A stretch of 64,000 nucleotides of DNA from Verrucomicrobiota bacterium (GCA_037127585.1 JBAXYB010000004.1:4022-68021); one strand, 5' to 3'. Counted from the first letter of the stretch, positions 2,515 to 63,386 are shown. Numbers and translations: made by a program. The notes: generated by a model not told the origin, from the sequence alone.

Positions 2515-3246
2515 TCATTTTGGCTTCTGGGTGTTGTCCGGCGGTGCTTGTTGCATTGCTTTAACAGTCATGGGCGCAGTTTTCGACATTCCATTGAGCG
2601 TCTCGATGGCCAATACAAGAGCCAGTTTGTGGTCGATTGCTGAGGCTACCATCTTCAGAATCTCCGCCAAGCTCTCAGTCGCTACCCTCAAGCATCTTGT
2701 CTTGTCCTCACGGATTGGAGAAAGAATCTCATCAACACGAACTCTCGTTTCATACCCCACACGCAATGGGGGAATAAAAGGGAAATGGTCTTTATCAACC
2801 GACAACGGGACTTTTCCCCAATCGGCAGGATTCCCCACCCGAGCCGCATATTGCTTGAACACTTGGGACAACACCGGGAAGTCTTCGTCAGTATAAACGC
2901 GGGCATCCAATCGCCCGCGGAGTACGCCCACAATCGAATTCGTCGGGACCTGCTCGACGCTTACGTCCGAAACATCACCACAAATCAATTCGTTTACCTT
3001 CGTGGAGAAGACTCGTGATCCGGGGGCAAGCTCATGATCTCGCAGAGGAAAATCTCCAGCAGCGTCAATACACCGCTCTGCCACAATGGTTGCAGCGGCG
3101 CTAATCGCATCCTCAACTCTAATGCGACCGTTTTGGTCGCGGAGAATGCCGAGAATAAGGTCGACCAATTTCTGACGCAAAGGCGAATCAATCGACTCCG
3201 ACGGTTTACCACCGGAGCCTTTGCGGAAGCTGTCAAAAATACTCAT
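2515..3246 (-). CDS. hypothetical protein (orphan, lies in the low-GC islet)
   Basis: A 243-aa ORF from the ATG at 3246 (MSIFDSFRKGSGGKPSE...). I recognise no motif. Local GC is about 45-50%, against more than 60% in the flanks. Confidence 0.45.
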   Translation of the reverse strand: MSIFDSFRKGSGGKPSESIDSPLRQKLVDLILGILRDQNGRIRVEDAISAAATIVAERCIDAAGDFPLRDHELAPGSRVFSTKVNELICGDVSDVSVEQVPTNSIVGVLRGRLDARVYTDEDFPVLSQVFKQYAARVGNPADWGKVPLSVDKDHFPFIPPLRVGYETRVRVDEILSPIREDKTRCLRVATESLAEILKMVASAIDHKLALVLAIETLNGMSKTAPMTVKAMQQAPPDNTQKPK

Positions 3247-3327
3247 GACATCACGATCCGCCGCGCCTGCTGCTGGGCGAGCAGGCACAACTCGGCGGCT
3301 TTGAACACGTGCGTTTGCGTCATGATG

Positions 3328-3729
3328 TCAGCCCCGGTAGGTGGCGTACGACGTCGGCGTTTCCCAGAGGCGGACTTCGACTACCGGCAGGCCTTCCGTC
3401 CGCGCGTGGTCGTAGATGAGTTTGGCGATGTTCTCCGCGGTCGGATTCTCCTCCATCACGACGTAGAGTTCGCCACTCTGTTGGAGCGTCGGCAACAGTG
3501 GGTCGGCTTTGTTGAGGAGCATCCGGTGATCGAGAGTGTCGTCAATCCATGCTTTCAGGATGCGTTTGATGTCGGCGAAATCGACAACCATGCCGCGCGC
3601 GTCGAGCTGGGCGGATTCGATGTCGATTTCGACGCGACCATTGTGGCCATGGAGGTGTTTGCACTGGCCGTCGTAGTTGAGGAGCCGGTGACCGTAACAG
3701 AAATCAATGTGTTTGGTGACTTTGAACAT
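3328..3729 (-). CDS. queD: 6-carboxy-5,6,7,8-tetrahydropterin synthase / 6-pyruvoyl-tetrahydropterin synthase (QueD/PTPS family)
   Basis: MFKVTKHIDFCYGHRLLNYDGQCKHLHGHNGRVEI contains the CxxHRL...HGHN zinc/catalytic signature of the PTPS family. Confidence 0.8.
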   Translation of the reverse strand: MFKVTKHIDFCYGHRLLNYDGQCKHLHGHNGRVEIDIESAQLDARGMVVDFADIKRILKAWIDDTLDHRMLLNKADPLLPTLQQSGELYVVMEENPTAENIAKLIYDHARTEGLPVVEVRLWETPTSYATYRG

Positions 3730-3776
3730 AGCGATGGGAGTGTAACCGCCAAGCCACCAAGAACGCCAAGAATTTC

Positions 3777-4511
3777 TCAGTTACCGGCAATCAGTCGTCC
3801 ACCGTCCACCATCAACGTGTGCCCGGTGATGAAGTCGCTGCCTTCGATGAGGAACAACACCGAGTTGACGATGTCCTGCGGCGAGCCGAGGCGTTTGACG
3901 ACGGTGGCTTGGATAACTTGCCGGGTCTGTTGAGGGGTAAAATCCTCCGGCAAGAGGACGGGGCCGGGAGCGATGGCGTTGACTTGGACCCGCGGGGCGA
4001 GTTCTTTCGCGAGCGCTTTGGTCAGGCAAATGATGCCGGCTTTCGAGACAAGGTAGGGCAAATAATGTTGATAGGGACGGACGGCGGCCCAATCGGCGAA
4101 AAGGATGATCTTGCCGGGGCGTTTCATTTGTTTGCCGACTTCGAGGGAAAACAGAAACGGGCCCTTGAGGTTCGCGTCGATGTGAAAATCCCAATCGGCT
4201 TCCGTCAGCTTCGCGAACGGGGTGCGTTCGTAGACGGCGGCACTGGCGACGAGGATGTCGATATGACCAAAATACCGGCGGGCTTTGGCAACCGCAGCCG
4301 CGACTTGCCGGGCTTTGGCTTGGTCGGCTTTCACGGCCAACGCATCGACGCCGAGTGCTTTGATTTCAGCAACAACTTGCCGGGCTTCGGCGGCGGAGGT
4401 GTTGTAGTGGACGATAATATTGGCACCGCGCTTCGCGAGGGCGAGGGCGATTTCGCGGCCGATGCGTTTACCGGCGCCAGTGACCAATGCAGTTTTACCG
4501 GTGAGTTTCAT
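3777..4511 (-). CDS. SDR-family oxidoreductase (pteridine-reductase-like)
   Basis: The N-terminus LVTGAGKRIGREIA is a TGxxxRIG motif typical of the PTR1/FolM subgroup of SDRs, with a YxxxK catalytic motif (YLVSK). It is adjacent to the PTPS-family gene. Confidence 0.7.
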   Translation of the reverse strand: MKLTGKTALVTGAGKRIGREIALALAKRGANIIVHYNTSAAEARQVVAEIKALGVDALAVKADQAKARQVAAAVAKARRYFGHIDILVASAAVYERTPFAKLTEADWDFHIDANLKGPFLFSLEVGKQMKRPGKIILFADWAAVRPYQHYLPYLVSKAGIICLTKALAKELAPRVQVNAIAPGPVLLPEDFTPQQTRQVIQATVVKRLGSPQDIVNSVLFLIEGSDFITGHTLMVDGGRLIAGN

Positions 4512-16898: not shown

Positions 16899-16976
16899 GC
16901 GCGCAGTGTAGAAGAACCATTCCCGTTAGCAAAGCGCGTTTGTAGTGAGCCTGCAAAGCGGCACGGGTTTGGTGGT

Positions 16977-17039
16977 GTGGGAGCGGCGTCCCCGCCGCGA
17001 CCGGGTCGGCAAAAATCGCGGCGGGGACGCCGCTCCCAC
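16977..17039. repeat. REPIN: two identical 24-nt units (GTGGGAGCGGCGTCCCCGCCGCGA) in inverted orientation with a 15-nt spacer
   Basis: The doublet is a perfect inverted repeat at 16977-17000 and 17016-17039, lying in the divergent region between the hpn-like gene and metH. Confidence 0.6.
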
Positions 17040-17109
17040 AACGACTGTTGGTTCGTTACCTCCCTTGCCCAATGTCACCGCCGCTGCTATTGTCACCGCC
17101 GGCAACCCC

Positions 17110-22028: not shown

Positions 22029-22139
22029 GTGTCCTAATCTGGACCGACGTTGTAGCCGAAGCGTGAGCTTCGGGCGTCAGCATGCGAATCCCGAAGCTCA
22101 CGCTTCGGCTACAGGAAAGGCTGGGAGAAATTAGGACAC
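22029..22139. repeat. nested REPIN: two identical units (TGTAGCCGAAGCGTGAGCTTCGGG) inverted, inside an outer GTGTCCTAAT/ATTAGGACAC inverted repeat
   Basis: The inner arms lie at 22051-22074 and 22090-22113, and the outer arms at 22029-22038 and 22130-22139. Confidence 0.6.
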
Positions 22140-38801: not shown

Positions 38802-38879
38802 CCGGGAGGGCGAGGCTCCCGCCGAGCCGTGGGGTGACGTGGCTCGGCGGGAGCCTCGCCCTCCCCCGGTTTTGGGATC
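38802..38879. repeat. family-A palindrome (CCGGGAGGGCGAGGCTCCCGCCGAGCCG - 10-nt loop - reverse complement)
   Basis: The arms are near-perfect 28-nt sequences, and the flanks (cccaaaac...gatcc / ggttttgggatcgg) are themselves partly complementary. Confidence 0.65.
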
Positions 38880-42615: not shown

Positions 42616-45602
42616 GTCACGTTCACCACGTCGCCGGTGCGGAGGAAGAAGACGAGCAGTTCTTCGACCGCGATGCCGGCGGTTTTGTTCAGCGCCTCAC
42701 GGTAGGCGCGCAGTTGAGCCTGATATTGCAACGCCTCTTGCGTCACATCGGTTTTGTAATCCACGAGCACCCACCGGCTCTGCTCGCGAAACAGTAAATC
42801 AATTCGGCCTTCCAACGTTCCATCGGCAAACGGCAACTCCCGGTAAACCTCATCCGCCTGACCAGCGCGGGTGAGCAACGGCGAACGGAGCGCGCGTTCG
42901 ACCCACGTCTTGGCGTCATCAGTCAAACCGGTTGCGTCCAATCGTTCCAACGCCGCGTGAACGAGCGTTCCGATTTCCATCGCCCGTTCGCGCGCAACCC
43001 CGGTCGGCTCGTCTTCCGCCTCAAGCTTCGACGGACTCACGCGCAACGCCGACTTCCCAGCTCGCTCCAACAACGCCGTGCGCTCCGCCTGCCAGGCCGC
43101 GCGGTTGAACGTTCGGACATCCGCCGCCGCCGGTTCGCCCACAACCACCGCCGGCAAGTCGCCGATAATTTCCACCACGGCACTCTCGCCCAGCTCGAAG
43201 CCGCGCTTCAAGAGGTCAAGCCGCTCACCTTTTTCGGCAAACCACGGGATGATCAGTTGCCGGCGCGCGCGGGTGGCCGCCACGTAGAGCAACCGGATTT
43301 CCTCGGCTTCATCGCGCAAGTCTTGCTCGCCAACTGCCGGTTCAAAACCGGTGGTCTTGCAGCCGGCAAAGCGCAACTGGAAATTCTGCGCTGCCCGATC
43401 CGGCACAAGTCGCGCGCCGCTGTCGCTGGATTTACCGGCCAGATCGGCGAGAATCACGACTGGAAATTCGAGACCCTTCGATTTGTGCATCGAGAGCAAT
43501 TGCACGGCCGGCGCTTGATCTTCGTGGGCCGGTGCGGGTTCTTCGTCCATCCCGGCCATGACGGTCTGGCGGAGTTGCCGGACGAAGCCGCGCAAGGAAC
43601 GGATGCCGGCAGCTTCGACTTGCCGGGCCAGTTCGAGTGCTTTGAGCAGATTCGCGACGCTGGCTTGACCGTCGGCGCTGACGGAGAAACAGGCCTGACA
43701 GAGATGCGTCCGCGCGAAGACTTGTTCGACGAAACCGGCCACGGAGAATTGATGCCGGGCATCGTGGAGTTCGCGCAGGAGGCGGAAGGTCGGGTTGTCG
43801 GCGCGCAAGTAACTCAGGCCACCGGCTTCGTTGGCGAGAAGGATTTGCTCGTCGCTCCAACCAAACAACGGCGACCGGAGAACGGCAATGAGATTGAGTT
43901 TGTCGTTCGGATTGTCGAGGCAACACAAGAGCGCGATCAAGGTCTGAATCTCTTGCCGTTGATAGTAACCACGACCGCCGATGATGCGAAACGGAACGCT
44001 GGTTTCGAGGAAGACTTCGGCAAACACTTCCACGCCGGTAAAACTTCGGAAGAGCAATGCGACATCGTTCCAGGGGATCTGCTGGCGGTGGAGATACCGA
44101 GCGATGGCGGTGGCTTCGGCACGACGGGCGGCGTCGATGGATTGTTTTTCGGGGATTGATGCCGGCCGCAAGAGCGTGATCTTGCCGGCGGCCGGGTGCG
44201 AGGCTTCGAGTTCGATGTAGTGCGGTTGATAGCTGGTCGGCTGAAACATCTTGGCGAAGACTGAATTTACCCAGTCGATGATGTTGGCCTGGCTGCGGAA
44301 GTTGCGCTGGAACTGGACGACTTGGCCGGTCGCCCCCAACTGCTGCCGCGTGCCGGCGTACATCTCGATGTCGGCCCGCCGAAAACCGTAGATGCTTTGT
44401 TTGGGATCGCCAACGATGAAGAGTTTTCCCGGTGTGTCGCCGCCGAGAGCGAGGACGATTTCGTTTTGGACCGGGTCGGTATCCTGAAATTCATCAACAA
44501 GAAGGAACTTGTACCGGTCTTGGAACTCCTGGCGGATGGCTGGCCCGCGCAGGAGGTCGCGCGTTTGTTCCAAGAGATCATCGAAGTCGAGCACGGCTTG
44601 GGAGTTTTTATATTGCTGAAAATGACCGACAAAGCCGGTCAGCCAGCCGGCCAGTTCCACCAGAAAGTTGTGTTCAGTGGCCGCGGTGTAATCGGCGATG
44701 ACGGCTTTGAGTTCTTTGATAGTCGCTTTGGTTTCGATGAATACCGCGGGCGAATCGAAATCGGCTTTGCGTTTTGGCTCGGAAAGTTCGACCGCGGAGA
44801 GCAACGCCGCCGCGCGCTCGGCCGAGGCAGTCGCCAGTTGCGGCAGGACATCGAGAAAGGATTTCACTCGTTGATAGAAGGTCTCGGCCGGCGCGACGTT
44901 GTGTTTGAGGCACCGCTCCAAGACTGGTGCTGCCGCTTCGAGTTCCCGGCGGATCGATTGCGGGTCGGCCGGGCACAGCGCCGGCCACGGTTGGTCGGTG
45001 AGCCGTGACCGCTGCTCTATCAACAGCGTCGCGAGCTCTTTGAGTTGGGGGATTCCGATCTCGCGCATCAAGGCCTGACGCAACGCAGCGGGATTTTTCG
45101 TCAGTTCGGATTCCAGCCAATTCGCCCACGCTTCATCGAGGAGCAATTGCTGCTGCAAATTATCGGCGACCGCAAACTGCGGATCGAGGCGCGCTTCGAC
45201 GGGCCGCTCGCGCAAAAGCGACGCGCAGAACGAATGAATCGTCGTAATGGGGGCGCGTTCCAAATCGCTGAGAGCTTGCCGGAGTGCGGCGCCGGTCACT
45301 TTCTTTTCCAGTTCTTCGCGCAGCCGCAACTTCAACTCCCCCGCCGCTTTCTCGGTAAATGTGATCGCGACATTCTCGTAAAGCCGCGCCCGGCCACTGG
45401 TCACCGCCGTCAGGATGCGCGCGACCAATGCCGTGGTCTTGCCGGTGCCGGCGGCAGCTTCGACGAAGAATGTCGTGTCGAGTTGCGTCGCGGTGGCGCG
45501 GCGCGCTTCTTGATCGATGGGAGGGCGAAGCTCCGGCTGAGCCGCCGGGGGCATGGCTCGCCGGGAGGCTCGCCCTCCCAACGACTCGCGTTCAGGACTC
45601 AT
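42612..45602 (-). CDS. addA: UvrD-like helicase with a C-terminal PD-(D/E)xK nuclease (AddA/RecB-like)
   Basis: Walker A is AGTGKTT, and helicase motifs, a C-terminal nuclease domain, and a stop/start overlap with the upstream addB-like gene are all present. Confidence 0.75.
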   Translation of the reverse strand: MSPERESLGGRASRRAMPPAAQPELRPPIDQEARRATATQLDTTFFVEAAAGTGKTTALVARILTAVTSGRARLYENVAITFTEKAAGELKLRLREELEKKVTGAALRQALSDLERAPITTIHSFCASLLRERPVEARLDPQFAVADNLQQQLLLDEAWANWLESELTKNPAALRQALMREIGIPQLKELATLLIEQRSRLTDQPWPALCPADPQSIRRELEAAAPVLERCLKHNVAPAETFYQRVKSFLDVLPQLATASAERAAALLSAVELSEPKRKADFDSPAVFIETKATIKELKAVIADYTAATEHNFLVELAGWLTGFVGHFQQYKNSQAVLDFDDLLEQTRDLLRGPAIRQEFQDRYKFLLVDEFQDTDPVQNEIVLALGGDTPGKLFIVGDPKQSIYGFRRADIEMYAGTRQQLGATGQVVQFQRNFRSQANIIDWVNSVFAKMFQPTSYQPHYIELEASHPAAGKITLLRPASIPEKQSIDAARRAEATAIARYLHRQQIPWNDVALLFRSFTGVEVFAEVFLETSVPFRIIGGRGYYQRQEIQTLIALLCCLDNPNDKLNLIAVLRSPLFGWSDEQILLANEAGGLSYLRADNPTFRLLRELHDARHQFSVAGFVEQVFARTHLCQACFSVSADGQASVANLLKALELARQVEAAGIRSLRGFVRQLRQTVMAGMDEEPAPAHEDQAPAVQLLSMHKSKGLEFPVVILADLAGKSSDSGARLVPDRAAQNFQLRFAGCKTTGFEPAVGEQDLRDEAEEIRLLYVAATRARRQLIIPWFAEKGERLDLLKRGFELGESAVVEIIGDLPAVVVGEPAAADVRTFNRAAWQAERTALLERAGKSALRVSPSKLEAEDEPTGVARERAMEIGTLVHAALERLDATGLTDDAKTWVERALRSPLLTRAGQADEVYRELPFADGTLEGRIDLLFREQSRWVLVDYKTDVTQEALQYQAQLRAYREALNKTAGIAVEELLVFFLRTGDVVNVT
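45519..45579. repeat. family-A palindrome inside the first 30 codons of addA
   Basis: GGGAGGGCGAAGCTCCGGCTGAGCC...GGCTCGCCGGGAGGCTCGCCCTCCC, translated as part of MSPERESLGGRASRRAMPPAAQPELRPP. Confidence 0.6.
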
Positions 45603-53397: not shown

Positions 53398-53415
53398 TCG
53401 CAACAGGATCGCCAT

Positions 53416-53490
53416 TGTAGCCGCGAGCCTGCTCGCGGCCCCACGGAATGCGCCAGTCCACAGTGAACCGCGAGCAGGCTCGCGGCTACA
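53416..53490. repeat. REPIN: two identical units (TGTAGCCGCGAGCCTGCTCGCGG) in inverted orientation, between convergent genes
   Basis: The arms are perfect 23-nt sequences at 53416-53438 and 53468-53490. Each arm is itself a small hairpin (CCGCGAGC..GCTCGCGG). Confidence 0.65.
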
Positions 53491-53513
53491 AAACCGAATT
53501 TCAAAACGCGCTC

Positions 53514-56500
53514 TCAGGCTTTTTCGGGCCGGTTGCTGTCCCAGACGATCGCCTTCTGCGGGGCGCTCTTCCGTTGCGAATCACCGCCCCCGCCCCACTG
53601 TCGCTGCCCAGCCGGCTTGGCGGTCATCTTCTCGGTATCCACCTTCAACCACACCGTTTCCTCGCCCGCCAACGTTTCGAGCGCGTCCACCAGTTCGGCC
53701 GACGGCGTCACCGCGAATTGATCGTGCGGTTCGAGAAACAAGAGTTGGCCATCCGGGTACATGAAGCAAAACATCACCGGCACGCCGCCGGTATGGGCGT
53801 TCAACAGATCCCGAATCTGCAGCAACGTAGCCTCGTTGGCCGCCGTGGTTGAAAGCCGGATGTGCATGGCCTTGGTGAACCGCTTGGGGACGTCGGTCAA
53901 TGGGATAACTTGATCCGCAAATATTTTCGGTTTGTCCTCGCGCAGATTCACCACGCCGGTAACAAAGACGGGCGCGTCCGCTTTCAAATGGATCGCACAC
54001 TTCGCATACGCCTCCGGGAAGACGAGCACCTCCACCGCGCCATCGAGATCTTCGAGCGTCAGGATCGCCATCGGCTTGCCTTGCTTGGTCAACCGCGGCT
54101 GGAGTTTACTCACAAGACCGCCGATGCGCGTGGCTTGGCCGTCCTGCAATTGAAGCAACTGCGTCGTCGACGCGAGTTCGTACCGGCGCAGAATCTCCGC
54201 GTACTGACTCAACGGATGGCCGGTCACGTAGAACCCGAGCAATTCTTTTTCGAAGCCCAACATCTCACTCTGCGTCCACTCCACCGCTGGCGGCTGACCG
54301 GCGGTTTGCTTGCGGGCATTGACCGGCGCGACGTCAAAGAGCGCGGCCTGCCCGCGATCCTTGTCGCGCTGGACAGTGGCGGCGCGATTGATTTGGTAAT
54401 CGATCTCGGCGAACACCTGGGCGCGCGCCGGGTTGATGGCGTCGAATGCGCCGCATTTGATGAGACACTCGATGACCTTGCGATTGACGACATGCATGTC
54501 GATCCGGTCACAGTAATTGGCAAGCGAGGTGAACGGCCCGCCCTTCCCGCGCACATCGATGATGTTCTGCACGGCGATCTCGCCCACGTTTTTAATCGCG
54601 GCCATGCCGAAACGGATTGCCTTAGTAGCGCGGGCGTCCCGCCCGTCTCCCCCAGCCGACGACACGGGCGGGACGCCCGCGCTACTGGTTACGGTGAACC
54701 GCACGCCGCTCTCATTCACATCCGGCGGCAAGACTTCGATCTTCATGTGCCGGCATTCGTTGATGAAGAGCTGAATCTTCTCCGTGTTCGCCAGTTCGTT
54801 CGATAACGACGCCGCCATGAACTCGACCGGGTAGTTCGCCTTCAAGTACGCCGTCTGATACGCGACCACGGCGTAGGCGGCACTATGCGATTTGTTAAAT
54901 CCGTAACCGGCAAACTTCGCCAGCGTATCGAAAATTCCTTCGGCTTTGGCTTTCGGGATTTTATGCGTGTCCGCGCAGCCTTTGATGAACGTGGCGCGCT
55001 GCTTCTCCATCTCCTCCAGCTTTTTCTTCCCCATCGCGCGCCGCAAAATATCCGCGCCCCCGAGCGTGTACCCGGCCAGCGCGTTCGCCGCCTGCATGAC
55101 CTGCTCCTGGTACACAAAAATGCCATACGTCTCTTTGAGAATCGTCTCCAGCGCCGGGTGGTCGTAGACAACTTTCACCTTGCCATGTTTGCGAGCAATG
55201 TAGTCGTCGATGAACTGCATCGGCCCCGGCCGGTAGAGCGCGATGAGCGCGTTGATGACCTCAATCGAATCAATCCCAATGCGCCGGCACAAGTCGCGCA
55301 TCCCGCCGGATTCCAATTGAAACACGCCGATGGTGTTCGCCTTCATCAGCAGGTCGAACGTCTTTTGATCGTTGAGCGGAATCTTCTCCATGTCAACGCG
55401 CGTCCCGGTGGTCTGCTCAATCAGATCGAGGCAATCCTTGATCACCGTCAACGTCTTCAACCCGAGGAAATCCATCTTCAACACGCCGAGATCGCCGAGC
55501 GGATTCATCGAGTACTGCGTGACGATGTCAGTCTCATTCGTGCCGGTCGTCAGCGGCACGATATTCGTCAACGGCTCCGCGCCGATGACCACGCCGGCCG
55601 CGTGCGTGGATGCGTTGCGCGCGATGCCTTCGAGCGCCTTGCCGTTGTCGATGATGCGCCGGACGATGTCCTCCGTATTGTAGGCCGTCTTGAGCTCGGG
55701 GTTCATCTCCAACGCCTTCTCCAGCGTCATACCGAGATCCGGCGGAATCATCTTTGCGATCCGGTCACACTCGGTATAACCCAGCCCCAGCACACGCCCC
55801 ACATCCCGCACCACCATCTTCGCGCCGAGCGTACCGAACGTGATGATCTGCGCGACGTGATCCGACCCGTACTTCTGCCGGACATACTCAATGACTTCCG
55901 GTCGGCGGTTGTAACAAAAGTCCATGTCGATATCCGGCGGCGACACGCGTTCGGGATTGAGAAACCGCTCAAAGAACAACCCATACCGGAGCGGGTCGAT
56001 ATCCGTGATCTTCAACGCATACGCCACCAGACTACCGGCCGCACTGCCGCGCCCCGGCCCCACCGGGATGCCATGCGTCCGCGCGAAATTCACAAAATCC
56101 CAGACGATCAAGAAATAGCTCGTGAACCCCTGCTTCGCGATGACATCCAGCTCGCGTTCGACCCGCGCGTGGATTTCGTTCGACGGCGAGCTGCCATACC
56201 GCTCGCGCACCCCGGCTTCGGTGAGTTGCCGGAGATACTGGTTCCGCTCGACACCAACCGGCGGGTGATAGACCGGAAAACGCAGCTTGCCGAACTCGAA
56301 TTTGAAACTGCATTTCTCCGCGACTTCGAGCGTGTTCGTGACCGCCTCCGGCACCTCGGCGAACAGCGTGTGCATTTCCTCCGGCGACCGCAGGAAAAAC
56401 TGCTCCGGCGCATACCGCATCCGCTTCTCGTCGCTGACCAACGCCTGCGTCTGCAAACAGATCAAACAATCGTGCGCTTCCCAATCACCGCGTTTGACAT

Positions 56501-57134
56501 AATGCACGTCGTTCGTGGCGACGGTCGCCAACTTGAATTCCTTCGCCCACTTGAGCAACTGCCGGTTGGCGACTTGCTGTTCCGGTATGCCGTGGTTTTG
56601 CAGTTCGATGTAAAAATCCCCCGGCGCAAAAATCTGCCGGTAATCATCCAGCGCCGCTTTCGCCTGTTCAACCTGCTCGTTGATGATCTTGTTCGGCACC
56701 TCGCCCTTGAGACACGAAGTGAAGCCGATCAACCCTTTCGAGTGTTGCGCGAGAATTTCCTTATCGATGCGCGGCTTGTAGTAGAAGCCTTCGAGATGCG
56801 CCATCGTGACCAGCTTGATGAGATTCTTGTACCCGGTCTCATCCTTCGCCAGCAGCACCAAATGATACGCCGCATCTCGAGCACTCCCGGCCTTCTTCTC
56901 CAACCGCGACCCCGGCGCGATATACGTCTCGCACCCGATGATTGGTTTCAGTCCCTTCGCTGATGCGGCCTGATAGAACTCGACCGCCCCGAACATCCCG
57001 CCATGATCCGTCATCGCAATTGCCGGCATCCCGTACTCGTGGGCTTTGGCGATCACATCGTCCACACGGCACGCCCCGTCGAGCATGCTGTACTCGGTGT
57101 GCAAATGCAGATGGACAAAGTCGGAGTGTTTCAT
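53514..57134 (-). CDS. dnaE: DNA polymerase III alpha subunit
   Basis: The N-terminal PHP domain (FVHLHLHTEYSMLDGA), the polymerase core, HhH and OB domains are present in a 1206-aa protein. Confidence 0.9.
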   Translation of the reverse strand: MKHSDFVHLHLHTEYSMLDGACRVDDVIAKAHEYGMPAIAMTDHGGMFGAVEFYQAASAKGLKPIIGCETYIAPGSRLEKKAGSARDAAYHLVLLAKDETGYKNLIKLVTMAHLEGFYYKPRIDKEILAQHSKGLIGFTSCLKGEVPNKIINEQVEQAKAALDDYRQIFAPGDFYIELQNHGIPEQQVANRQLLKWAKEFKLATVATNDVHYVKRGDWEAHDCLICLQTQALVSDEKRMRYAPEQFFLRSPEEMHTLFAEVPEAVTNTLEVAEKCSFKFEFGKLRFPVYHPPVGVERNQYLRQLTEAGVRERYGSSPSNEIHARVERELDVIAKQGFTSYFLIVWDFVNFARTHGIPVGPGRGSAAGSLVAYALKITDIDPLRYGLFFERFLNPERVSPPDIDMDFCYNRRPEVIEYVRQKYGSDHVAQIITFGTLGAKMVVRDVGRVLGLGYTECDRIAKMIPPDLGMTLEKALEMNPELKTAYNTEDIVRRIIDNGKALEGIARNASTHAAGVVIGAEPLTNIVPLTTGTNETDIVTQYSMNPLGDLGVLKMDFLGLKTLTVIKDCLDLIEQTTGTRVDMEKIPLNDQKTFDLLMKANTIGVFQLESGGMRDLCRRIGIDSIEVINALIALYRPGPMQFIDDYIARKHGKVKVVYDHPALETILKETYGIFVYQEQVMQAANALAGYTLGGADILRRAMGKKKLEEMEKQRATFIKGCADTHKIPKAKAEGIFDTLAKFAGYGFNKSHSAAYAVVAYQTAYLKANYPVEFMAASLSNELANTEKIQLFINECRHMKIEVLPPDVNESGVRFTVTSSAGVPPVSSAGGDGRDARATKAIRFGMAAIKNVGEIAVQNIIDVRGKGGPFTSLANYCDRIDMHVVNRKVIECLIKCGAFDAINPARAQVFAEIDYQINRAATVQRDKDRGQAALFDVAPVNARKQTAGQPPAVEWTQSEMLGFEKELLGFYVTGHPLSQYAEILRRYELASTTQLLQLQDGQATRIGGLVSKLQPRLTKQGKPMAILTLEDLDGAVEVLVFPEAYAKCAIHLKADAPVFVTGVVNLREDKPKIFADQVIPLTDVPKRFTKAMHIRLSTTAANEATLLQIRDLLNAHTGGVPVMFCFMYPDGQLLFLEPHDQFAVTPSAELVDALETLAGEETVWLKVDTEKMTAKPAGQRQWGGGGDSQRKSAPQKAIVWDSNRPEKA
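54625..54685. repeat. REPIN (two identical GTAGCGCGGGCGTCCCGCCCG units inverted, 19-nt spacer) embedded in-frame within dnaE
   Basis: The doublet is a perfect inverted repeat, translated as approximately SSAGVPPVSSAGGDGRDARATK between the conserved PPDVNESGVRF and AIRFGMAAIKNVGE segments of DnaE. Confidence 0.65.
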
Positions 57135-63334: not shown

Positions 63335-63386
63335 GGGAGGGCGAGCCTCCCGGCGAGCCGCGGCTCGACTGGAACCTCGCCCTCCC
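63335..63386. repeat. family-A palindrome (partly deleted copy) downstream of the TadG-like gene
   Basis: GGGAGGGCGAGCCTCCCGGCGAGCCGCGGCTCG...CCTCGCCCTCCC. Confidence 0.5.

Follow-up and report, generated by a model that had tools for sequence, protein, structure and literature searches.

We describe a REPIN, an inverted doublet of a repetitive extragenic palindromic (REP) hairpin unit, that lies in frame within dnaE, the gene for the alpha subunit of DNA polymerase III (Pol III), in a stretch of 64,000 nucleotides from a Verrucomicrobiota bacterium (GCA_037127585.1, JBAXYB010000004.1:4022-68021), hereafter the window. The identity of the element as a REP doublet, its potential to be translated in frame, its position, its presence or absence among orthologues and the recurrence of REPs of different families at the same site were all directly observed. 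Very probably, a REPIN of the type associated with REP-associated tyrosine transposases (RAYTs) was inserted in dnaE, where it accounts for a disordered loop at the tip of a hairpin. The features concerned, in window coordinates, are:

54624 to 54686, no strand: full inverted repeat of the dnaE REPIN, 63 nt, made of two 26-nt arms and the 11 nt between them.
54625 to 54645, no strand: REP unit 1 (GTAG head and CGGGCG/CGCCCG stem), the exact 21-mer.
54646 to 54664, no strand: spacer between the two 21-mers, 19 nt.
54665 to 54685, no strand: REP unit 2, the exact reverse complement of unit 1.
54618 to 54689, minus strand: the 24 codons T816-A839, which replace the 4-codon hairpin turn of empty alleles (codon-level comparison with loci L119 and L121).
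53514 to 57134, minus strand: dnaE (DNA polymerase III alpha subunit), an uninterrupted open reading frame (ORF) of 1206 codons.

The sequence GTAGCGCGGGCGTCCCGCCCG occupies positions 54625-54645 and its exact reverse complement positions 54665-54685, with a 19-nt spacer, which confirms the perfect inverted doublet of a GTAG unit in an uninterrupted dnaE on which the original prediction, made from this DNA alone, was built. The window holds two matches to the 21-mer where 0.02 would be expected, and none of 100 shuffled sequences held two or more. The arms pair at 21 of 21 positions, and the inverted repeat extends to 26-nt arms (54624-54649 and 54661-54686) that are 96% complementary, 25 of 26 positions being paired with a single mismatch. 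Each unit reads GTAG-CG-CGGGCG-TCC-CGCCCG, that is, a GTAG head followed by a 6-bp stem with a 3-nt loop, and the two units with their short spacer fold, as a single strand, into one long hairpin, with computed energies of -63.7 kcal/mol as RNA (z = -7.5) and -38.4 kcal/mol as DNA (z = -7.8). The coding strand reads ACC AGT AGC GCG GGC GTC CCG CCC GTG TCG TCG GCT GGG GGA GAC GGG CGG GAC GCC CGC GCT ACT AAG GCA, which is translated as T-SSAGVPPVSSAGGDGRDARAT-KA and stands in the protein as ...RFTV-TSSAGVPPVSSAGGDGRDARATKA-IRFGMAAIKNVGE. No Rfam match was found at the insert.

The product of the host gene is 100% identical to a deposited protein, 'MAG: DNA polymerase III subunit alpha [Verrucomicrobiota bacterium]', where MAG stands for metagenome-assembled genome. 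Its Pfam domains are PHP (residues 8-181), DNA_pol3_alpha (299-558), finger (561-722), HHH_6 (798-906) and OB (1003-1079), and it resembles the solved structures of Pol III alpha from Taq (E = 1e-290; PDB 2HPI) and E. coli (E = 1e-257; 5FKU). The protein thus has the PHP, palm, fingers, helix-hairpin-helix (HhH) and OB regions of a replicative Pol III alpha, together with full-length similarity to solved structures, and its length and domain content point to the replicative dnaE and not to the error-prone DnaE2. The gene order dnaE, LysM gene, 447-aa gene, 3-deoxy-D-arabino-heptulosonate 7-phosphate (DAHP) synthase is kept in orthologues.

Comparison with 120 DnaE homologue clusters placed the insertion at the level of the codon. 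The closest orthologues, P0002 and P0003, are syntenic with the window gene, share 87% identity with its product, and are empty at the site, where they read RFTV-EKGN-IRFG; close relatives therefore differ by presence and absence, the polymorphism that the original prediction had proposed to look for. The codons of the empty turn in L119 and L121 are GTC GAG AAA GGC AAC ATT. Since the window allele has 24 codons where these have four, the net gain is 60 nt, or 20 codons, a multiple of three as anticipated, whereas delimitation by the repeat itself gives 63 nt, or 21 codons. Neither a target-site duplication nor a conserved junction motif was found when filled and empty alleles were searched for them. 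A 7-nt match (AAGGCAA) of the filled right flank to the empty allele in its +1 frame, which would require an insertion of 62 nt and a compensating 2-nt deletion, was set aside as uninterpretable from one pair. An intein or other such in-frame mobile element was dismissed, the insert consisting of 24 low-complexity residues without a domain.

In the alignment with Taq Pol III alpha the insert falls between V883 and G884-E886, in the hairpin FDFKVV-GEE-ILFG directly before the HhH motif GLSAVKNVGE, and it lies within the HHH_6 match; the corresponding hairpin tip of the E. coli protein is at about residues 825-829. An AlphaFold2 model of residues 540-1010 (65 aligned homologues, mean predicted local distance difference test score (pLDDT) 80.9) agreed with the Taq, E. 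coli and M. tuberculosis Pol III alpha structures at template modelling (TM) scores of 0.67-0.77. It places strands at 814-817 and 838-841, on either side of the insert, so that the insert's own flanks would lengthen the beta-hairpin, and gives the central 15 residues (821-835) a pLDDT below 50, compared with about 88-95 for the adjacent blocks. Furthermore, the turn residues are hypervariable in empty alleles (EKGN, DKGR, RDGK, GGGK and others). The alignment position, the low-pLDDT loop and the hypervariable empty turns together support the permissive surface loop suggested by the original prediction, and the model indicates that the insert is probably a disordered loop at the tip of the beta-hairpin.

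In the mechanism that we propose, a REPIN, that is, a non-autonomous inverted doublet of a GTAG-headed REP hairpin associated with a RAYT (IS200-like Y1), would have entered the dnaE coding sequence at the tip of the two-stranded beta-hairpin (RFTV / IRFG) just N-terminal to the HhH DNA-binding motif. The element is stop-free in two of three frames in both orientations, the third giving a TAG stop, and because it is also G+C-rich and adds 60 nt it would simply be read through. The roughly 20 added residues, rich in Gly, Ser, Ala, Pro and Arg, would lengthen the hairpin into a stalk that ends in a disordered loop, and the polymerase fold would stay intact. The same tip is a recurrent host site for REPs and REPINs throughout Verrucomicrobiota, likely because it is among the very few insertion-tolerant places of DnaE in REP-rich genomes.

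The repeat is widely dispersed. A scan that covered one genome per species (loci L001-L118) located at least 138 copies of the exact 21-mer, mostly doublets, at no fewer than 118 loci in other genomes, with more than 10 loci in each of the MAGs SPRUCE 226, SPRUCE 690 and SPRUCE 364. The common form in Verrucomicrobiia MAGs (SPRUCE 226 and 690) is AGTAGCGCGGGCGTCCCGCCCGT, then about 14-45 nt, then ACGGGCG(A/G)GACGCCCGCGCTACT, and its doublet architecture and extra flanking bases are those of the dnaE element. In Acidobacteriota MAGs the 21-mer unit forms the outer arm of larger, nested composite elements with four hairpins. Locus L051, from a related Verrucomicrobiia MAG, holds a RAYT-like gene with HUH and Tyr motifs and with doublets of the family on both flanks. 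This gene scores 29.6 bits with Pfam Y1_Tnp (cut-off 23) and, as a stop-to-stop ORF, 72.9 bits with the NCBIfam model NF047646 for REP-associated tyrosine transposase, just below the cut-off of 80; a second RAYT, in L063, scores 84.7 bits with NF047646. A RAYT flanked by the repeat is the defining arrangement of the REP-RAYT association. The dnaE element is consequently a true member of a dispersed family of GTAG-type REP doublets (REPINs), in the canonical RAYT-associated form first proposed for it, and in the source genome it was presumably mobilised by a RAYT.

These data also bear on whether any mobile element need be invoked. A local or coincidental palindrome, or an artefact of MAG assembly, might be suspected of a sequence that has a single copy in the window and comes from a metagenome-assembled contig. 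The sharing of the exact 21-mer with so many other genomes, the same doublet architecture beside a RAYT in L051, homologous inserts at the same codon position in independent NCBI, JGI and ENA assemblies, and the preserved reading frame effectively refute this explanation, to which we attach almost no probability.

Among the matches listed, GTAGCGCGGGCGTCCCGCCCG is common to MAGs labelled Acidobacteriota/Terriglobia, Verrucomicrobiia, Planctomycetota, Desulfobaccales, 'delta proteobacterium' and Reyranella; an identical 21-mer under such distant labels is odd for elements believed to be inherited vertically, as REPIN populations have mainly been described to be. In L051, a stop-to-stop ORF on the minus strand (2640-4349) spans a D-Tyr-tRNA deacylase domain, the upstream REPIN and the RAYT, so that this REPIN may be read as the tail of dtd, and an Mfd gene 2 kb from the RAYT holds another in-frame copy of the repeat.

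The DnaE site itself is occupied repeatedly. It is 3-5 residues long in 71 of 119 homologue clusters and longer in 48, up to 41 residues, which disposes of the claim in the original prediction that other DnaE proteins have no comparable stretch. Orthologue DNA showed that the filled alleles carry REP doublets of at least seven families: GTAG(C/A)(G/A)C-GGGCGTC(C/T)CGCCCG in the window, P0004, P0005 and P0036; GTAGGACAGGCGTCCCGCCTGTC in P0089, P0096 and P0105; GTAGCGCAAGCTTCCAGCTTGCG in P0020, with a decayed relative in P0013; GTGCTGCCGGCATCCTGCCGGCAG in P0108; TGTGGGAGCGGCGTCCCCGCCGCGA in L126; GTAGCCGCGGTCAGCGACCGCGGCTAC, as a single unit, in L132; and GTAGCGGCGGTCTATGACCGCCG in L146. The head variants GTAGAAC and GTGGAAC also occur in orthologue inserts. 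Two reading frames are used, AGT AGx and GTA Gxx, and they can differ between members of one family (P0096 against P0089). The DnaE type of L132 and L146 ('LKFxPE...IRYG') was first thought to come from another phylum, which its Verrucomicrobiota/Chthoniobacterales label ruled out, and we therefore make no cross-phylum claim for the dnaE site. In DnaEs of the Chthoniobacterales type, 53 of 55 parsed homologues exceed the 22-residue baseline at the site, and further REP-type peptides are found there (VAAVYDRR...GGHRPPLQ, WEGPQRP...AEAAPTL and VAGIDDAG...ITDPGYN). In one Chthoniobacterales DnaE fragment, P0124, the left-arm peptide VAAVYARR is followed by three tandem right-arm peptides, GGHRPPLQ, GGHRPPLE and AGHRSPLQ, which indicates local amplification of REP units inside the coding sequence. 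Scanning metagenomes with the DnaE segment yielded for the most part distant DnaEs whose site is empty; these served as outgroup, and the scan was also the source of L125, L126, L132 and L146. In about 50 DnaEs of other lineages obtained in this way, the turn is short without exception. On the P0004 contig (L120, 23 kb), a search for inverted repeats with a seed of 10 found nothing, the P0004 element being missed at that seed because its arms have two mismatches, and the contig showed no further REPINs.

The 120 homologues show a single further indel hotspot over their roughly 1200 residues. It lies in a distant clade (P0088-P0120), between the PHP domain and the palm, following residue 314 of P0002, and contains a conserved module of about 20 residues (RAEGHEFIVERVEDPRRLPTY) followed by variable tails that include REP-like peptides, such as 'AASILPADQ...CRQDAGSTL' in P0111 and '...IAGGTPAL' in P0110.

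The inserts behave as passengers would. Their arms are perfect in the window and P0108, near perfect in P0020, carry 1-2 mismatches in P0005, P0004 and P0089, and are decayed in P0036, P0013 and L125, and the insert peptides range from 7 to 41 residues with no common length or sequence beyond what the repeats dictate. The exact 21-mer also occurs in frame in other bona fide genes, coding for Mfd/TRCF, MetH, IspG, a Ser/Thr kinase, a GDSL-domain protein and RHS proteins; in an RlmD-like methyltransferase it is found at the same site in two MAGs, and an HI0933-like flavoprotein carries it in two MAGs. The series of arm decay, the unconstrained peptides and the in-frame copies in unrelated genes fit tolerated, decaying insertions, and the insert is most likely a near-neutral passenger and not a functional module.

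Several observations weigh against a simply tolerated insertion. The 64-kb window contains no second copy of the dnaE REP family and, by motif regex, no RAYT. In the window, P0004 and P0005 alike, the insert occupies the one site, is read in the one frame and has 17 nt between CGCCCGT and ACGGGCGG, where genomic copies have about 14-45 nt; the spacer sequences themselves are similar at 6-7 of 17 positions, which is indistinguishable from chance, so that only the equal length is of note. The fourfold-site distance between the window and P0004 is 0.395 raw and about 0.56 per site after Jukes-Cantor correction, at which one old neutral insert should have accumulated about 12 substitutions per lineage over its 42 arm nucleotides; the window has none. 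The recurrence at one site, the shared frame, the common spacer length in three lineages and the near-perfect arms could mean targeting or maintenance, and a hairpin of such stability in an essential mRNA might be costly.

An element that is targeted or maintained would be one for which the hairpin-tip codons are preferred for landing or retention, its recurrence stemming from mechanism or function beyond tolerance; possible variants are that a resident REP draws further REP insertion or conversion, or that the palindrome is kept by template-switch correction or by selection on DNA or RNA structure. Such an explanation would account for the occupation of one site in so many clusters, and in nearly all parsed Chthoniobacterales sequences, by at least seven REP families in a protein with just one other hotspot. 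It would also fit the frame and spacer length shared despite diverged spacers, the arms kept near perfect over that distance, and the same three changes that P0004 and P0005 carry, relative to the window, in both arms. Filled alleles with unrelated REPINs, furthermore, have a right flank in common: P0001, P0004, P0020, P0021, P0022, P0036 and P0039 end in (K/Q/S)A-IRFG whatever the REPIN family, and empty ones in xxG(K/R/Q/N)-IRFG. This flank could reflect shared ancestry of the filled alleles, a structural requirement or a signature of insertion. Against targeting, the left junctions (ACC/A, GCT/A, ACG/A, GTT/, GCC/ and CAA/A, the slash marking the junction) have no conserved target motif; the decayed copies in P0036, P0013 and L125 mean that not every copy is maintained; the peptides are constrained neither in length nor in sequence; many unrelated proteins tolerate the same REP; and repeated independent insertion of each genome's active family would also yield apparent covariation of the arms. 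We therefore consider targeting or maintenance quite unlikely. The broader proposal that the DnaE hairpin tip is a phylum-wide, convergently reused REP/REPIN landing pad in Verrucomicrobiota, its reuse reflecting mechanism and not mere tolerance, is one that we put forward as a conjecture with rather low odds; possible mechanisms would be a RAYT target-site or REP-to-REP preference, homogenisation of the arms, or selection for a flexible appendage or for mRNA structure.

Tolerated insertion, the reading that we prefer, is compatible with more than one history. At fourfold sites the window DnaE differs by 0.34-0.36 from the empty P0002 and P0003 and by 0.395 from the filled P0004; amino-acid identity and a neighbour-joining tree likewise put it nearer to the two empty alleles, and the empty turn EKGN resembles the outgroup consensus. 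This closeness to empty relatives with an outgroup-like turn favours independent gains, or allele exchange by recombination. Over the whole DnaE tree, filled alleles are interspersed among empty ones. The absence of arm substitutions where about 12 are expected would mean either that insertions are recent and repeated or that the arms are kept complementary, and template-switch correction of quasipalindromes and conversion by other copies are established processes that could do the latter. The history may thus be one of repeated insertion or of an old insert with homogenised arms. Of the recent insertion suggested by the original prediction, the insertion stands, but its recency belongs to one of several compatible histories.

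The window contains six further hairpin doublets, perfect or near perfect. They belong to at least three other REP families, and two of the six doublets are GTAG-headed:

16976-17040, 22051-22113, 38804-38865, 45514-45584, 53415-53491 and 63335-63386: other window doublets, all extragenic or at predicted ORF 5' ends.

Their unit types are TGTGGGAGCGGCGTCC..., GTAGCC-headed units and GGGAGGGCGAGGCTCCCGCCGAGCC (three copies). They mark the genome as REP-rich, with the dnaE copy as its one clearly intragenic element in the 64 kb. The doublet at 53415-53491 lies 23 nt past the dnaE stop codon, and the family of the doublet at 16976-17040 is the one found in frame at the DnaE site in L126/P0021. 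Rfam matches to microRNA precursors (MIR1151 and mir-1304; about 30 bits against a gathering threshold of 90) on the extragenic REPIN at 53409-53497 were dismissed as chance matches to a long hairpin.

Intragenic REPs have a precedent. Di Nocera, De Gregorio & Rocco (2013, BMC Genomics 14:522; PMC3733652) catalogued REPs lying wholly within ORFs, more than half of them dimers encoding 20-30 residues. In-frame GTAG REP dimers were most numerous in the verrucomicrobium Opitutus terrae and notable in replication and repair genes; they included a REP at residues 934-971 of O. terrae dnaE2 (Oter_4053), starting GTGVSPV, and one at residues 853-861 of Rickettsia conorii dnaE, and neutral insertion in flexible loops was proposed (PMC3733652). 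The dnaE element resembles these cases as a GTAG-headed inverted dimer, in frame, encoding a peptide of that size in a replication gene of the same phylum, and GTGVSPV is the left-arm peptide of the P0004 dnaE insert. It therefore extends a known phenomenon, and two statements of the original prediction, that such elements are normally strictly extragenic and that an in-frame REPIN in the replicative polymerase is unusual, were respectively too strong and overstated in view of these precedents, polymerase genes included, and of the recurrence at the site. Unlike in the catalogued cases, the gene entered here is the replicative dnaE, in an uncultured verrucomicrobium, and the element sits at a hairpin tip before the HhH motif. 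In addition, REPs in genes of one functional category were reported to sit at different sites, except in Xanthomonas recB (PMC3733652), whereas in the present case many families across the phylum occupy a single codon-level site. A replicative polymerase used repeatedly in this way, at one position, is a case that we did not find described.

With REPIN-RAYT systems (Bertels & Rainey 2011, PMC3116915; Nunvar et al. 2010) the element shares the inverted doublet with a variable spacer; its family is dispersed in many copies in other genomes, and in L051 its repeats flank a RAYT gene. REPINs and RAYTs were described as extragenic (PMC3116915); unlike those classical REPINs, the dnaE copy lies inside a gene, in frame, and is coding. 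Rickettsia palindromic elements (RPE; Ogata et al. 2000, summarised in PMC10969869), the classic analogue, also lie in frame in many unrelated functional genes, where they are predicted to be compatible with the fold. RPE, however, are about 100-150 bp long, come from different sequence families, lack a dedicated RAYT and are found in an intracellular parasite of the Alphaproteobacteria, whereas the dnaE element is a GTAG-headed doublet of 63 nt in a verrucomicrobial host; it is not an RPE, and the analogy is one of behaviour only.

The dnaE REPIN provides a natural example of a selfish palindromic repeat absorbed by an essential, highly conserved enzyme without breaking it, and indicates that G+C-rich REPs, stop-free in most frames, can seed new protein surface loops. 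It also carries a warning for annotation: in verrucomicrobial proteins, a peptide like GVPPV...RDARAT or GQASSLS...RDACPT comes from a repeat and is not a functional motif. The main interest lies in the recurrence at the site and in the question of arm maintenance: dozens of independent or independently refreshed inserts, with empty and filled close relatives, form a natural series at one codon-level site of DnaE, which can serve to ask how REPINs choose and retain sites, at what rate their arms decay or are homogenised, and how far a replicative polymerase tolerates insertion.

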